Positions 15,270 through 21,658 of a DNA stretch of 32,000 bases are shown one piece after another. This DNA is from Faecalibaculum rodentium. Its GTDB lineage: Bacteria; Bacillota_I; Bacilli_A; Erysipelotrichales; Erysipelotrichaceae. The DNA lies in contig NZ_CP011391.1 in the NCBI RefSeq assembly GCF_001564455.1, positions 2,100,001 to 2,132,000 on the forward strand. The letters run 5' to 3'. The stretch's first letter is position 1. The number at the start of each line of letters is the position of its first letter. The position numbers and the translations under genes are program-made. The notes under the pieces are model-generated. The model saw only the letters and a program-made list of their open reading frames with translations, was not told where the DNA came from and ran no database searches.

Positions 15270-15941
15270 TCAGGCAGCAGCCATTTTCTGCAGGATGTTC
15301 CCGACCAGTTCCCTGCTGCAGCCTGAGGCCTGCGCAATGGTTTCCGGATCGCGGATGCCCTGACGCAGCATGGCCAGGACCTGGTCCAGGGTGCGGTTTT
15401 CTCCGGGGACAACCGTCTGTGCTTCCTGGGGGTCTGCCGGCTCGACTGACGGCATCTCTCTTGTCCTGCGGCTGGCGGCAGTCTGCTCCAGCTGATCCGG
15501 CTCTTCTTTCGAAATGGTGGCCAGGTCCTTCAGCTGGACGGGATAGAGCCGGTCGATCCGGTATCCCTCTTCCTTCAGGACCTTCGCCTTGAACTGCATC
15601 TGCTGGCTGCACATCACCGTAGCCAGGGCCGGCGGCATAGGCGGATCCAGCCGGATCCCGAAAAGACTGTGACGGTCTGTCAGGATCACAAGATCCATGT
15701 CTTCCCTGGTTTCTTCCCGGAGGTCCGGGACTTCGGCAGGGAACACATGCAGGACTGTCTCCGGTTTCTGCAGAAGGTCCTGCACCACCCAGCTCGCGCA
15801 GGCAAACCGGTCGGCATCGTCGAGGGCCGGATCCTGGAAAAAGGACCGGAATGCCATGGGGTCATCGGAGAACAGAAGTTTCCGGAATGTTGTCAGGATC
15901 TGTGTGCGGGTGGGTTTTGTATCGTTCATTTTGTGTTTCAT
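15270..15941 (-). CDS. Hypothetical protein (223 aa) with a possible C-terminal HTH
   Basis: ATG 15941 has SD ggagga 8 nt upstream. The track ORF extends to 16031 without an SD. The C-terminus TLDQVLAMLRQGIRDPETIAQASGCSRELVGNILQKM looks HTH-like. I recognise no family. Confidence 0.6.
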   Translation of the reverse strand: MKHKMNDTKPTRTQILTTFRKLLFSDDPMAFRSFFQDPALDDADRFACASWVVQDLLQKPETVLHVFPAEVPDLREETREDMDLVILTDRHSLFGIRLDPPMPPALATVMCSQQMQFKAKVLKEEGYRIDRLYPVQLKDLATISKEEPDQLEQTAASRRTREMPSVEPADPQEAQTVVPGENRTLDQVLAMLRQGIRDPETIAQASGCSRELVGNILQKMAAA

Positions 15942-16101
15942 ACTTTGTATCCTCCACTTTGTATATTCGCCAGATGCCCCTGTTTTTGCGGAAATCCGTT
16001 CCTGCACTGTACAAAAAAGGCTGGAAATCACCGCTTCCAGCCTTTTTTGTACACTGTTGATGGAATACTTTGCAGGTGACTTGTCATGTCCGAAGACTGC
16101 C
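15925..16101. repeat. 177-bp direct repeat, copy A (contains a terminator hairpin, an SD and the first ~5 codons of gene 15270..15941)
   Basis: Aligns by eye at ~85 percent identity with 17027..17202 (offset 1101-1102 bp). It includes the identical 36-nt hairpin aaaaaaggctggaaatcaccgcttccagcctttttt and gtatcctccactttgtat. Confidence 0.85.
16013..16048. terminator. Bidirectional rho-independent terminator (within repeat copy A)
   Basis: A6, stem ggctggaa, loop atcaccgc, stem ttccagcc, T6. It lies downstream of the 16136..16942 gene. Confidence 0.8.
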
Positions 16102-16135: not shown

Positions 16136-16942
16136 CTATCTGAAGAGAAATATGAGAAGAATTCCAGCCAGAAGAGCTGCAGCCACCAGAAAAATCCACC
16201 AGTACTTTTTGGACTGCTCTCTGCGGCTGCCGACGCTTCCCACAACCAGCATGACCAGGGCCATAAACAGCAGAAGAAGCAGTCCCAGGCTACAGTTGAC
16301 CAGGACCAGGTTCCGGATACTGATGTTCTGGCTGATGACGGTAAAATCTATGGTCAGGATTGAAAATATCGAAACGAAAATGCCCATCAGCGTCAGAATA
16401 TTGGCATAAATTTTTCCTTCCTGATTTCTCAGTCCTTCTGTGGCTTCTTCCAGTTTCCCGATTTTTTCCGTATAGACGCTGTCATATTTTCCATACCCCC
16501 GATACGCTGTTTCATCCGCAAATGAGCTGACAGGACGTGACTGATAATCCTGTTCCGGCAGTTCATCCAGTGTATGGAAAAACAGCTGCGCTATTTTCAT
16601 TCCGGTATCGAGGACGATGGGGGTCCCAGAGGCGTTCAATACCCTCAGATAGGCCCGTGAGTGATGGCCGGGGAAATAGACAGGACCATCCACAATCAGT
16701 CCAGTGCGCATCAGCGAGTTTTTTTCGCCGACAGTGAGCGCCAGATCACGGGGAACGGTAAATTCTTCTCTGGATTCGATCATGACAAAATCTCCAGGCT
16801 GCAGTTCCAGCCTGTCTTCATGATGTTTCGCCAGAATCTTCCCTATCGTCAGATCATAGGAAATACACCCAATATTCTCCTCTTCATATCCGGACGGAAA
16901 GATTTCGGGGGCCCGTTGTTTGATTTGTTTATCTACCAGCAT
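16136..16942 (-). CDS. dCTP deaminase/dUTPase-fold domain fused to a coiled coil and three C-terminal transmembrane helices
   Basis: By-eye alignment to E. coli Dcd motifs: ISYDLTIG, LQPGDF, EKNSLMRTGL, FPGHHSRAYLRVLNASG, GMKIAQLFF. The C-terminus has the hydrophobic segments IYANILTLMGIFVSIFSILTIDF, LVLVNCSLGLLLLLFMALVMLVV and YWWIFLVAAALLAGILLIFLF. ATG 16942 is preceded by aaaggtga. GTG 16951 is an alternative start. Confidence 0.75.
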   Translation of the reverse strand: MLVDKQIKQRAPEIFPSGYEEENIGCISYDLTIGKILAKHHEDRLELQPGDFVMIESREEFTVPRDLALTVGEKNSLMRTGLIVDGPVYFPGHHSRAYLRVLNASGTPIVLDTGMKIAQLFFHTLDELPEQDYQSRPVSSFADETAYRGYGKYDSVYTEKIGKLEEATEGLRNQEGKIYANILTLMGIFVSIFSILTIDFTVISQNISIRNLVLVNCSLGLLLLLFMALVMLVVGSVGSRREQSKKYWWIFLVAAALLAGILLIFLFR

Positions 16943-16956
16943 CTCAATCACCTTTG

Positions 16957-17043
16957 TTAGATTATAGTCCCTTGACTGATTTCATAAAAGCAAAAGCGAT
17001 TGACACCAGCCATGGGTAAAGCTGGATTCATTGTGTCTTTCAT
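16957..17043 (-). CDS. 28-codon upstream ORF (MKDTMNPALPMAGVNRFCFYEISQGTII), probably the truncated duplicate of the 5' end of gene 15270..15941
   Basis: It has the same SD (ggaggatacaa) and a similar opening (MKDTMN versus MKHKMN) as the gene below repeat copy A. Its stop lies 5-14 nt before the Dcd-like gene start. Translation is not demonstrated. Confidence 0.3.
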   Translation of the reverse strand: MKDTMNPALPMAGVNRFCFYEISQGTII

Positions 17044-17202
17044 GCGTTGTATCCTCCACTTTGTATCTTCGCCGGATGCGGCCGTTTTTGAGAAAACTTC
17101 TCTTTGAACTGGATAAAAAAGGCTGGAAATCACCGCTTCCAGCCTTTTTTGTCCAGGTTGATGGAATATTTGGCATGTGACATGTCATGTCCGAAGACTG
17201 CC
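17027..17202. repeat. 177-bp direct repeat, copy B
   Basis: See copy A (15925..16101). Confidence 0.85.
17115..17150. terminator. Bidirectional rho-independent terminator (within repeat copy B)
   Basis: The hairpin is identical to 16013..16048. It lies downstream of glpK and the DUF1667-like remnant. Confidence 0.8.
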
Positions 17203-17204
17203 CG

Positions 17205-17531
17205 TCAGACAGTCTCCACCATGCGGGTTGCAATCACATTCACCCCGGTTTCTGCCGCATCCGCCAGGACCACATCTCCGATCTGCACCGGCGCCTGCAT
17301 CCGGACTGACCGCAGGGCGCGGCCCCCATCCGGCAGAAGCAGATCAGTTCTTTTTCTTTTCTATCGTCCGGCCTCATCCGGACACAGGCAAGCCCTGCCG
17401 CCGGATTCAGTGACAGATTTTCTGAATGTGTCTTGCCCTCACAAGCAGTGGCATTCCGTTGCACGACGGGATATCACAGATCCGGGCAGACCATCCCGGA
17501 TGATCCCGGAAGCTGCCGGCATCCGCCGCTT
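17205..17531 (-). pseudogene. Probable remnant of a DUF1667-type gene (small Cys-rich protein of clostridial glycerol-3-phosphate dehydrogenase clusters)
   Basis: Minus-strand translation of 17360..17208 gives KRKRTDLLLPDGGRALRSVRMQAPVQIGDVVLADAAETGVNVIATRMVETV, followed by a stop at 17207..17205. This matches my memory of the DUF1667 C-terminus (APV.(I/V)GDV(I/V)...TG(V/I)(N/D)V(I/V)ATR). Upstream of it the same frame has TAG at 17363..17361, and no frame gives an intact ~115-aa ORF from the glpK stop. Confidence 0.4.
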
Positions 17532-19037: not shown

Positions 19038-19354
19038 GAAGACACTCCTTTCCGCACCGCTTTGCCTGCTCCGTGCAGGCGCTGTCATGTTTGTCGTCTG
19101 TTTCTATTGTACGCCGTCCGGATGAGCCCTGCAGTCTTCGGGAAACCGGGACAGTCCGGGCGGGGGGGATGACAGACAGCCAAAGCGGCCATGCAGGAAA
19201 CGGGAGGCAGGGGCATGGAACCCACAGGGAAGGATATCGGCCGTTGCCGAACCATCCGAGTATAAAAAAAAGACGCTCTAAAGTTTTGTGAGGTTTGGAC
19301 TCTCACATCCAATACAGTTGGATGAGGGGTCCGGACCTCATTTTCATTTACAGC

Positions 19355-20785
19355 CTATTTGCTGCTGTTCTCTCTACTGTTGACAGCTTTATCCTGTCTG
19401 TCTGGATGCCCATCTTCAGGACCCCTGGAAAGCACAAACAGGACTCTGTTCCTGAACCGTTCCCAGTTCGTATATCCATTCGCATTGTGTTTGATCATCT
19501 TGATGATCTTGTTTCTGTTCTCTATCATCGAGCTGGTCAGGCGATGTTCTTTCAGCCTTACATTCCCGGTCTTCGGATCGACCACATATTCCTGCTTGAC
19601 GATATGGAACGAATTGATGATTTCCCTGAACCAGTTGCGCAGGGTGTCAGCGAAACTCTGCAGTTCCTCCACACCTGTACTGTCTAGATCTCTAATCAGA
19701 GATCTGAGCTCCTCCTCTGCAGTACTCAGGTTTTCTTTTCTGTAATACTCCGACAGCCGGTTCCGGAAGTGATACGCCTTCCTCAGGTCCGGGCTCGTAT
19801 CCAGCAGTGCCTCACGCAGTTCATATCTGTTCATCTGCCTCTTCAGTCCGCTGACATAAGATCTGGGTGCTGCCGGATCAAATATCATCATCTTCTTTCC
19901 TGTCCTGTCCCTGTACCAGGCATCAGGCCTGATCCCCAGAAGTTCACTCTGATGCTTGAGCAGATAGTATTCCGGAGACCCTTTTCGAGTTCCTTTCATC
20001 ACACGGATCCTCACTCTGTTCAGGCTCTTCGTATATTCCTGGACCACATGGAACCTGTCCACGGCGAATATCGCTTTGGGAAAGAAAGTCGCAGCTATCT
20101 CCCTGTAGGGCCTGTACATATCGGACGAGATGTACTCCACTCTGTCTCTCTCGCTTCTGGGAAACTTTCGGAAATAAGCTGCCAGATACTCCTTTTTCCT
20201 GGAAGGGAGCACATCCACCGGGGACTGGGCATCGTAGTCCAGGAGCATGCATACATATTTTGAATCATCAGATTTGAAGGAATATGTTTCGTCGATCTGC
20301 ATCACCCTGCATAGTTTCACCGGCACAGGGTAACTTACACACATGTCGAATATCTTCATCACTGTCGTAGCTGAAACGTGATGACGCTCTCCTACAGAAG
20401 CAAAAGTTTCATTTGGAGACCTGAGATCTTCGATGATCGCTTTTCCTGTCAATATGGAGATCCGCTGTCTTTTCATGGCGAAGGGATTGTCTTCTCCATA
20501 GGTGCGGTGGCAGTCTTTGCATTTGTAACGCCTGGCGTTGTAGATGAGAGTGCATTTGCGGTCTGTAAGGACATCATGGTTTATCACACGGGGAGTGTAG
20601 TTGAAAACGACGATGTTATGACCACCGCATCGGGGGCATTCAGGAAACGCAGGAACCAAAGTGACCTCCACAAGCATCTGATCGATGCCAGGGGAGGTCG
20701 ATATGTTCTGGACCCTGGAAGCATCAAGACCGAACAGTTCAAGAGCTGTATTTTCCAGGGAATTTTTGACTTTTACAGCCATCAT
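19355..20785 (-). CDS. ISL3-family transposase
   Basis: 476 aa. N-terminal zinc finger CPRCGGHN...YKCKDCHRTY, then HTH and DDE regions (MQIDETYSFK..., AVDRFHVVQ..., SSMIENRNKIIKMIKHNANGYTNWERFRNR). Confidence 0.9.
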   Translation of the reverse strand: MMAVKVKNSLENTALELFGLDASRVQNISTSPGIDQMLVEVTLVPAFPECPRCGGHNIVVFNYTPRVINHDVLTDRKCTLIYNARRYKCKDCHRTYGEDNPFAMKRQRISILTGKAIIEDLRSPNETFASVGERHHVSATTVMKIFDMCVSYPVPVKLCRVMQIDETYSFKSDDSKYVCMLLDYDAQSPVDVLPSRKKEYLAAYFRKFPRSERDRVEYISSDMYRPYREIAATFFPKAIFAVDRFHVVQEYTKSLNRVRIRVMKGTRKGSPEYYLLKHQSELLGIRPDAWYRDRTGKKMMIFDPAAPRSYVSGLKRQMNRYELREALLDTSPDLRKAYHFRNRLSEYYRKENLSTAEEELRSLIRDLDSTGVEELQSFADTLRNWFREIINSFHIVKQEYVVDPKTGNVRLKEHRLTSSMIENRNKIIKMIKHNANGYTNWERFRNRVLFVLSRGPEDGHPDRQDKAVNSRENSSK

Positions 20786-20788
20786 TCA

Positions 20789-21400
20789 TCACCTCGATGA
20801 CAGTATGGCGGAAGGCGGAACAGGTTCCGATGAGAGGAAGGTTGGAAAGACCATGGTCTTTCCCCACTGGACCCCATTGGATACAGATGTATCAGAACTA
20901 CCATTGGTTTCGTACTGCAATCGCTGAATGAACTTTGGAACAAGAGAAAAGAAGCTCCTGAAACCGGACGATGGGAATTCCGGGAACCGACGACGAAAAT
21001 CCTGTACGAATCGGTACAGGGATGAGGATTCAGTATCTGGAGAGAAATCCGCCAGGCGCAGCGGCTCCCCTGCAGCAGACTTTTTCAGGGCCATGGAGGC
21101 ATCTTCGCTGGAAAACAGATAATAGGGTATGAAAATGTCGGGAAGGACCCGGTGGACGTGGCGGCAGTGTGGGCAACGGACGCGTCTTATTGAGATGGTG
21201 AAAGTACCACAAGGCAGCTTAATGGTGCGGGGGACACTACCGTGACAGTGAAGATCATGACCGCAAAAAGGGCAGACGAAGAGCTTTTCACTGGAGCAGA
21301 AGGCCTGGAAAAGCAGGTCATAGATCCTCTGCAGCATCTCCTGACTTGAGATATCGGAAAGTGATCGTATGTGATTCAGGCGTTTGTCTTTCGGGGACAC
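20789..21400 (-). CDS. DUF6431-like zinc-ribbon protein (IS passenger)
   Basis: CPFCGHDLHCHGSVPRTIKLPCGTFTISIRRVRCPHCRHVHRVLPDIFIPY matches my memory of DUF6431. The start (GTG 21400 or a later ATG) is uncertain, with no clear SD. Confidence 0.6.
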   Translation of the reverse strand: MSPKDKRLNHIRSLSDISSQEMLQRIYDLLFQAFCSSEKLFVCPFCGHDLHCHGSVPRTIKLPCGTFTISIRRVRCPHCRHVHRVLPDIFIPYYLFSSEDASMALKKSAAGEPLRLADFSPDTESSSLYRFVQDFRRRFPEFPSSGFRSFFSLVPKFIQRLQYETNGSSDTSVSNGVQWGKTMVFPTFLSSEPVPPSAILSSR

Positions 21401-21658
21401 AAACTTCTTGAAAACCCATGTGATTATCTGTAACGTAAAGGTTGCCTAACGGTGGGACAGAGCAAAGTAGGGTCGAAACTAGATTGCACTGTCTCTTTTT
21501 CTTTCTATACAGTGTATTGTGACCGAAAAGACCTCAAGATAAAAGGAGTTGTTCTGACCTTCCACCTCACAGGCTAGATAGGACAGGAACAACTCCTTTT
21601 CAGTTTTACTGATTAAATTTGGAGGCTTGATTCGACCTCACAAATCTTTGGATATTCT

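Follow-up and report, generated by a model that had tools for sequence, protein, structure and literature searches.

Dcd (dCTP deaminase) and dUTPase enzymes are obligate homotrimers, in which the C-terminal arm becomes ordered over a neighbouring pocket upon nucleotide binding. Here we describe a gene from a 32,000-nucleotide stretch of Faecalibaculum rodentium DNA (contig NZ_CP011391.1, positions 2,100,001 to 2,132,000; the whole stretch is called the window, and coordinates are counted within it), which encodes a protein with a head predicted to have this fold, followed by a tail of three predicted transmembrane (TM) helices. This protein, termed DCD-TM, resembles the Dcd and Dcd-Dut enzymes (Escherichia coli 1XS1; Mycobacterium tuberculosis 2QXX/4A6A) in its barrel, the Arg of the SS..R loop, the PG turn, the IAQ/IGQ strand and the C-terminal lid; but it is only 21-24% identical to them, has replacements at three catalytic positions and carries 120 extra residues, made up of a helix and the three TM segments. 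The archaeal Dcd-like dUTPases (Thermococcus P45 9LN0; T. pacificus 8Y1W) give the best superpositions, with a target TM-score of 0.81-0.84, and likewise lack the deaminase Glu. Unlike the DCD-TM protein, they retain the Asp of the DPG motif, on which hydrolysis depends, and the RSS loop, and are soluble proteins of 155 aa. The nearest relatives are soluble 165-aa proteins, the P0065 clade, which have neither the helix nor the TM tail. We tentatively propose, with rather less than even confidence, that the DCD-TM protein is a single-gene membrane effector that senses pyrimidine nucleotides and acts in abortive infection or superinfection exclusion.

Anti-phage dCTP deaminases, which are reportedly the work of Tal et al. 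2022 and, for AvcD, Hsueh et al. 2022, had been named as a precedent in a preliminary description of the window made from the DNA letters. They do have the theme of phage defence through pyrimidine deoxynucleoside triphosphates (dNTPs) in common with our proposal, and one of them, identified by the PADLOC 'dCTPase' model, sits beside a DCD-TM homologue. The precedent nevertheless holds in name only, as these proteins are Zn-dependent enzymes of the cytidine-deaminase fold (PMC12184417). They have a PF00383 domain, are soluble and catalytic, are fused to other domains and are not homologous to the DCD-TM head. In the TM effectors of the pyrimidine cyclase system for antiphage resistance (Pycsar) and of the cyclic oligonucleotide-based antiphage signalling system (CBASS; Cap15/Cap14-type), a cytoplasmic nucleotide-binding domain is joined to a module of 2-4 TM segments that damages the membrane. 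The same logic is proposed for the DCD-TM protein, in which a conserved cytoplasmic domain and a multi-TM module are both present; but Pycsar and CBASS effectors need a neighbouring cyclase and use other binding folds, whereas the DCD-TM gene has no conserved neighbour. Because no synthase is conserved beside it, any ligand of the DCD-TM protein would have to come from general or phage metabolism. The trimeric dUTPases of staphylococcal phages are nucleotide-controlled switches, which derepress Staphylococcus aureus pathogenicity islands (SaPI) through the ordering of motif V. They offer a precedent for a phage-borne switch of the dUTPase fold, but are active and soluble, and act on a repressor rather than on the membrane. 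The preliminary description knew of no characterised Dcd-fold protein tethered to a membrane, and our literature searches likewise turned up no published account in which a Dcd or dUTPase fold is joined to TM domains or a TM effector in defence.

Fold and active-site residues of the head

The coding sequence of the DCD-TM protein runs from 16136 to 16942 on the minus strand (268 aa plus stop), with an ATG at 16942. The list of open reading frames (ORFs) gives 16136-16951, or 271 aa, if an alternative GTG start at 16951 is counted, and the frame had been described in that form; it is present, but is better drawn as 16136-16942. The ATG at 16942 is probably the true start, and the GTG, which would add 3 residues, probably not a start, since the identical database cluster P0001 is 268 aa long, all homologues open with M(I)LVDK and a Shine-Dalgarno sequence (AAGGTGA, 16948-16954) lies 5 nt ahead of the ATG. 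Residue numbers in this text nevertheless count from the GTG at 16951 (271-aa numbering).

The N-terminal part of the protein (aa 4-130; 16562..16942, minus strand) contains the motifs ISYDL, GEKNSLMRTGL, YFPGHH, LRVLN and KIAQ, and is predicted to be a cytoplasmic Dcd/dUTPase-fold beta-barrel. Pfam DCD (PF22769) matches it at E=2.7e-18, scoring 66.9 bits where 27 is the cut-off. A phmmer search of the PDB found the M. tuberculosis Dcd-Dut at 1.6e-8, with archaeal Dcd-like dUTPases also among the best solved relatives, and in a search with a family profile both reached ~1e-14. An AlphaFold2 (AF2) model of the monomer, built on an alignment of 36 family members, has a mean predicted local distance difference test score (pLDDT) of 88.2, rising to 94-98 across the barrel. 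When this model was compared with the PDB by Foldseek, Dcd, Dcd-Dut and archaeal dUTPase structures ranked at the top (E ~1e-11; best 1.5e-11), with superpositions reaching a target TM-score of 0.84 at a root-mean-square deviation of 1.8-2.3 A. The Dcd beta-barrel of the preliminary description is therefore confirmed at the level of profile matches and predicted structure. The motif matches by which it had been recognised, made against E. coli Dcd strings, are supported here indirectly, by the corresponding alignment with the enzymes of M. tuberculosis and archaea. The stricter models behave differently: TIGR02274, the Dcd equivalog, scores 58.1 bits, below its cut-off of 92.8, the PF00692 dUTPase model scores 13.8 bits, below its cut-off of 22, and NCBIfam assigned no equivalog to the protein. 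By homology, the protein falls within the Dcd/dUTPase superfamily as a divergent member that lies outside the Dcd and Dut enzyme families, and its head is part of a distinct clade. The PHROGs library returned only a generic phage 'dCTP deaminase' family and a weak match of the tail to phrog_5763, and no holin family.

The residues responsible for catalysis were audited by alignment to the M. tuberculosis enzyme, in which A115 falls where the A115V variant (4A6A) requires. The roles of the catalytic Glu, Ser and Asp are those of the published Dcd and Dcd-Dut mechanisms. The catalytic Glu129, the counterpart of which in E. coli Dcd we take to be Glu138, corresponds to R103, which is invariant in 36/36 family members. 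Ser102, the first Ser of the KSS..R motif, corresponds to N78, which is nearly invariant, while the second Ser (Ser103) and the loop Arg (Arg106) are kept as S79 and R82. Asp119, the Asp of the I-D-P-G sequence in motif III and the general base of dUTP hydrolysis, is replaced by F in the window protein and by Q, H, Y or N in its relatives, or, in some alignments, is lost to a 2-residue deletion; in no part of the family is PGH preceded by an acidic residue. With the Glu changed to Arg, the first Ser to Asn and the motif-III Asp replaced, neither dCTP deamination nor dUTP hydrolysis is plausible. The doubt already expressed about classical deamination is thus strengthened, while the claim that the Ser and Arg of the nucleotide-binding loop are retained is borne out for the Arg and the second Ser, the first and catalytic Ser being the one that is lost.

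The remainder of the pocket is conserved. R103, N106 and A121 are invariant and N78, S79, R82, H96 and Q122 nearly so, and ISYDL, K-N-S..R, PGH, N106 and (K)IAQ are kept together with a lid of the form SF.NE..YRGFG.Y. In the window protein, this lid or arm (aa 131-157; 16481..16561, minus strand) follows the pattern PE.DY...SF.DE..YRGYGKY. Within it, E147 and Y156 are invariant and F144, Y150, G152 and G154 nearly invariant. By eye it resembles motif V of dUTPases (RG..GFG), and in three relatives (P0065, P0078 and P0081) the Pfam dUTPase profile aligns through the arm to profile positions 126-128 of 129. Such fixed replacements alongside a conserved pocket indicate selection for something besides catalysis, most simply ligand binding, although the head may carry out a new reaction.

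The membrane tail

Kyte-Doolittle analysis places TM segments at residues 183-206, 215-240 and 250-270, and the AF2 model has tail helices at 154-206 (unbroken), 212-239 and 244-270; both agree with the three hydrophobic helices of the preliminary description, and the architecture it proposed, a Dcd/dUTPase-fold head joined to a three-TM tail, is borne out. Its short coiled coil is indeed helical, but is better seen as the N-terminal, cytoplasmic part of the single helix 154-206, which enters the membrane as TM1. This amphipathic connecting helix (aa 158-180; 16412..16480) is followed on the minus strand by TM1 (aa 181-206, IYANILTLMGIFVSIFSILTIDF; 16334..16411), by TM2 (aa 215-240; 16232..16309), in which N219, S221 and L222 are conserved, and by the poorly conserved TM3 (aa 250-270; 16142..16204); the TM segments rest on the Kyte-Doolittle profile and conservation, and for TM2 and TM3 also on the AF2 model.

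Conservation along the protein is uneven. TM1 is the best-conserved segment, with a mean pairwise identity of 62%, ahead of the barrel (51%), the lid (47%), TM2 (41%), the connecting helix (30%) and TM3 (24%). Within TM1, Y182, N184, M189 and F196 never vary, and conservation reaches 97% at T187 and G190. Since TM1 tops the conservation of the whole protein and includes invariant polar residues, the tail is, on this evidence, functional and more than a passive anchor. An inner-membrane topology with the N terminus inside and the C terminus outside fits the basic character of the loop SRREQSKK between TM2 and TM3, which is predicted to be cytoplasmic, as well as the C-terminal extension found in two relatives (P0078 and P0081), which in P0078 has a weak peptidoglycan-binding signature (E=0.0018, below cut-off).

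Distribution of the family and its soluble relatives

A search of 1.84 billion representatives with just the tail (aa 140-271) found at least 125 clusters at 50% identity, nearly all of which are ~265 aa long and have the same head; one search gave a full-length family of 74 clusters at 90% identity. A pattern-limited scan of 185,579 species-representative genomes returned 50 loci with a patchy distribution, mostly in Lachnospiraceae, Eubacterium, Clostridium and Erysipelotrichaceae, with a few in Treponema. The family resides mostly in gut Clostridia. Rare variants keep the tail but differ in front of it: in P0179 the barrel gives way to a Crp-like winged-helix head, and P0124 has an additional N-terminal helix-turn-helix.

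The soluble sister clade (the P0065 group) comprises ~70 clusters of 165-aa proteins from Clostridia with the signature 'EKNS / QPGH / (L/F)RV.N'. These proteins are ~50% identical to the DCD-TM head and share its lid as well as its replacements at the three catalytic positions. Some are encoded within pyrimidine-biosynthesis operons of two unrelated Clostridia lineages, where they adjoin pyrK and pyrD. In both examples (L015 5493-5990 and L064 353-853), the operon order is pyrC-pyrF-...-[gene]-pyrK-pyrD, and the Asn, Gln and Arg replacements are present. Another soluble relative sits between CMP-sugar genes, in a CMP-sugar/NeuB cluster, and others occupy other housekeeping contexts. Since soluble relatives are placed in pyr operons, the ligand of the shared pocket is likely to be a pyrimidine nucleotide.

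Genomic contexts and proposed function

The neighbourhoods of 36 full-length loci, taken as ±2 genes, contain 115 proteins of 121 Pfam families with no recurrent partner; neither an antitoxin, a cyclase nor an immunity gene was found as a conserved partner among these neighbours. The DCD-TM gene is a single-gene unit. Its GC content lies below that of the locus in nearly all of 46 loci. In the window, its GC content at third codon positions (GC3) is 0.54, equal to that of a nearby ISL3 transposase, as against 0.67-0.82 in the neighbouring genes, and on the strength of this foreign composition the window gene is horizontally acquired. The accessory, single-gene character suggested earlier is supported by both the composition and the lack of a conserved neighbour.

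At least seven loci lie in prophages. In four phages or prophages, the gene is co-oriented at the boundary between the replication and packaging modules (L006 8001-9802; L013 1455-3054; L028 231-2206; L079 7001-9853); in three of them it is directly upstream of terS, and in the fourth it follows the replication module, upstream of HNH and portal genes. In two other prophages it follows the holin and endolysin genes at the prophage end, in cassettes that have holins of their own, and in one prophage it adjoins the integrase. Defence genes are also found beside homologues. In Clostridium sp. YIM B02500 (L076 2854-7891), an NsnA/PD-T4-2-like gene and a gene for an 800-aa Zn-dependent dCTP deaminase (PADLOC dCTPase, 2.5e-126) lie directly upstream of the DCD-TM homologue; there may be a functional link between this dUTP-producing deaminase and the membrane protein, a pseudo-dUTPase. 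Other homologues have a DruE-like helicase or a PifA-like protein beside them, a retron reverse transcriptase-Toprim lies 3.3 kb from one, and several more PADLOC matches occur among the ±2 neighbours; at least four loci have strong PADLOC neighbours. The survey of defence islands that had been called for thus places homologues in prophages and beside defence genes, as well as in many housekeeping loci.

An immune role for the DCD-TM protein, in which it would respond to the pyrimidine dNTP state of the infected cell, is favoured because the gene is carried by prophages and adjoins defence genes. In the mechanism that we propose, the head would most likely bind a pyrimidine (deoxy)nucleotide without turning it over, and we infer that it probably assembles as a trimer, in the manner of the Dcd and dUTPase enzymes. 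As the lid runs directly into the long helix that becomes TM1, occupancy of the pocket could be relayed to the membrane module: ordering or disordering of the lid would pass through a three-helix stalk to a bundle of nine membrane helices (three TM segments in each of three subunits), which the conserved Asn, Ser and Thr side chains would line. As a result, the membrane would lose its integrity or change in permeability, leading to abortive infection or exclusion, or alternatively to lysis timed by the phage. A more specific version of this proposal makes the family a new, stand-alone class of immune or lysis-control effectors, in which a homotrimeric pseudo-dUTPase would read the pyrimidine dNTP pool (e.g. 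dUTP or a phage-made modified dNTP) with its three pockets, the lid would gate a nine-helix pore without any signal synthase, and the pair of genes in L076 would act as a functional relay; in all these particulars it is unlikely to be right.

Several observations weigh against an immune effector. No model in the PADLOC library matches the DCD-TM protein, and the association with defence genes, taken as a tally of neighbours, is suggestive rather than established. The window locus is itself a housekeeping one (glpK, DNA-alkylation repair, rsmD, corA), as are several of the homologue loci, and two abundant gut variants, together with a few GTDB loci, lie in or beside surface-polysaccharide clusters. 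The occurrence of soluble relatives in pyr operons suggests that the head clade could serve metabolism or regulation in its own right, through a housekeeping activity that may even be catalytic with other residues. Moreover, the co-oriented slot at the replication/packaging boundary of four phages may reflect expression in the lytic cycle instead of in the lysogen.

The last of these points is the starting point for a role in the phage lytic cycle, in which the protein would be a membrane sensor of the nucleotide pool, a holin/antiholin-like timer or a tether for replication or packaging, expressed as the early phase passes into the late one, and the chromosomal copies would be remnants or domesticated. 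The repeated use of that slot by four different phages, the position beside holin and endolysin genes in two prophages, the weak match of the tail to the phage family phrog_5763 and the fact that phage dUTPase and Dcd genes are common all speak for it. However, most of the 36 full-length species-representative loci have no phage genes within ±2 genes, and homologues of the tested phage genes were detectable in two loci only. A tblastn search of cultured phages in GenBank returned no full-length member, with matches to true Dcd or Dut proteins over the head only. Some copies are fixed in place within a species, outside prophages, and one prophage has the gene facing its lysis cassette in convergent orientation, as is typical of a moron. 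We regard a lytic-cycle role as rather improbable.

A housekeeping or regulatory membrane protein, which would couple the status of pyrimidine nucleotides or nucleotide sugars to envelope or polysaccharide synthesis without any conflict with phages, has a slimmer chance. Such a role would suit the soluble relatives near pyrK/pyrD and in the CMP-sugar/NeuB cluster, as well as the gut variants P0044, which is embedded and co-oriented in a glycosyltransferase/nucleoside diphosphate (NDP)-sugar cluster, and P0058, which abuts such a cluster; NDP-sugar epimerases are the commonest neighbour family (4/115), and P0060 adjoins a nucleoside phosphorylase. Polysaccharide loci are themselves hotspots for acquired genes, however, and a housekeeping function sits poorly with the very patchy occurrence across species, the foreign composition, the carriage by prophages, the defence neighbours and the lack of a conserved partner. 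It is very improbable that the protein works at the membrane as a true dCTP deaminase or dUTPase, depleting or sanitising dNTPs, since the fold and Pfam DCD match, the name 'deoxycytidine triphosphate deaminase' given to relatives in public records and the conservation of the head clade in pyr operons are outweighed by the invariant Arg in place of Glu, the Asn in place of Ser, the absence of the motif-III Asp and the TIGR02274 and PF00692 scores under their cut-offs.

Public records label the relatives 'dCTP deaminase' or 'hypothetical'. The former label, attached to a family of at least 125 clusters from gut Clostridia, is very likely wrong, because the family lacks the residues needed for that reaction. 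If the proposed membrane effector is real, the Dcd/dUTPase barrel would join the few folds that have been reused by bacteria and phages as sensors wired to membrane effectors, and the signal would be an ordinary metabolic nucleotide, not a dedicated second messenger. The soluble sister clade in pyr operons is an uncharacterised protein of interest in itself.

Repeats and neighbours of the window gene

The direct repeats reported to bracket the gene are real. They are ~177 nt long, share 83-91% identity, where chance would give 0 matches, and lie downstream (copy 1, 15925..16101) and upstream (copy 2, 17027..17202) of the DCD-TM gene. Each combines a strong bidirectional terminator hairpin with a leader, which bears the Shine-Dalgarno motif GGAGG, and with the opening seven codons of the next gene downstream, which encodes 225 aa (15270-15947, minus strand); in copy 1 the hairpin and leader run into the real start of that gene, while copy 2 continues with the codons ATG AAA ... 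The cassette structure that had been read into the repeats is less apt than a duplicated terminator, leader and first codons, and the simplest reading is that the intergenic segment between glpK and the 225-aa gene was duplicated along with the insertion.

The hairpin of the upstream copy (17109..17156) resembles a bidirectional intrinsic terminator, with the structure GGCTGGAA-N8-TTCCAGCC between runs of A6 and T6 (the 95% complementary inverted repeat I4), and is predicted to insulate the DCD-TM gene from glpK; it was not listed by a simple terminator scan. An identical hairpin (16005..16056; inverted repeat I1) lies just past the stop codon of the gene, and an exact 24-mer is common to the two. 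No promoter consensus was found in a scan of the DNA upstream of the DCD-TM gene.

The upstream ORF of 28 codons noted in the preliminary description (MKDTMNPALPMAGVNRFCFYEISQGTII; 16957..17043, minus strand) is present, but it appears to be a by-product of the duplication, that is, the duplicated and frame-drifted start of the downstream gene, rather than a dedicated leader peptide: its Shine-Dalgarno sequence and first 7 codons are copied from the start of the 225-aa gene. It stops 2 nt ahead of the Shine-Dalgarno sequence of the DCD-TM gene, and translational coupling of the two is possible. Rfam matched nothing in the whole window, so the repeats and leader are not a known RNA element. A multicopy mobile repeat was considered and rejected, as the repeat occurs twice in the window and, in a metagenome scan, at this locus only. 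No empty site was found: a look-up of the exact protein of the 225-aa gene was empty, and the related metagenome contigs L074 and L075 both carry the gene and the repeats.

The 225-aa gene matches nothing in Pfam or PHROGs, and none of the other DCD-TM loci has a homologue of it. On the other side, a high-GC spacer of 330 nt (17203-17531) extends from the glpK stop to the upstream repeat and holds no convincing ORF or Rfam match. A degraded glpP in this spacer was rejected, as tblastn with neighbour proteins, including the glycerol-3-phosphate antiterminator, found nothing. Within the spacer, the ~49 nt at 17263-17312 correspond to ~185 nt in L075.

Over the segment 14600-17325, where the DCD-TM gene lies, identity with the same-species contigs L074 and L075 is only 96.6%, as against 99% in the flanks. 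The DCD-TM proteins of the window and these contigs are identical over aa 1-249 and then diverge over TM3, which suggests that the 3' end of the gene belongs to a recombination tract or was replaced by another allele. Further along, the stretch 19271-21657 holds the low-GC ISL3-family transposase gene (19355-20785, minus strand) and a DUF6431 gene (20789-21400, minus strand). It is missing from the otherwise 99% identical L075, where the alignment jumps from 19270 to 21658, and looks like a recent, strain-variable insertion of an insertion sequence.

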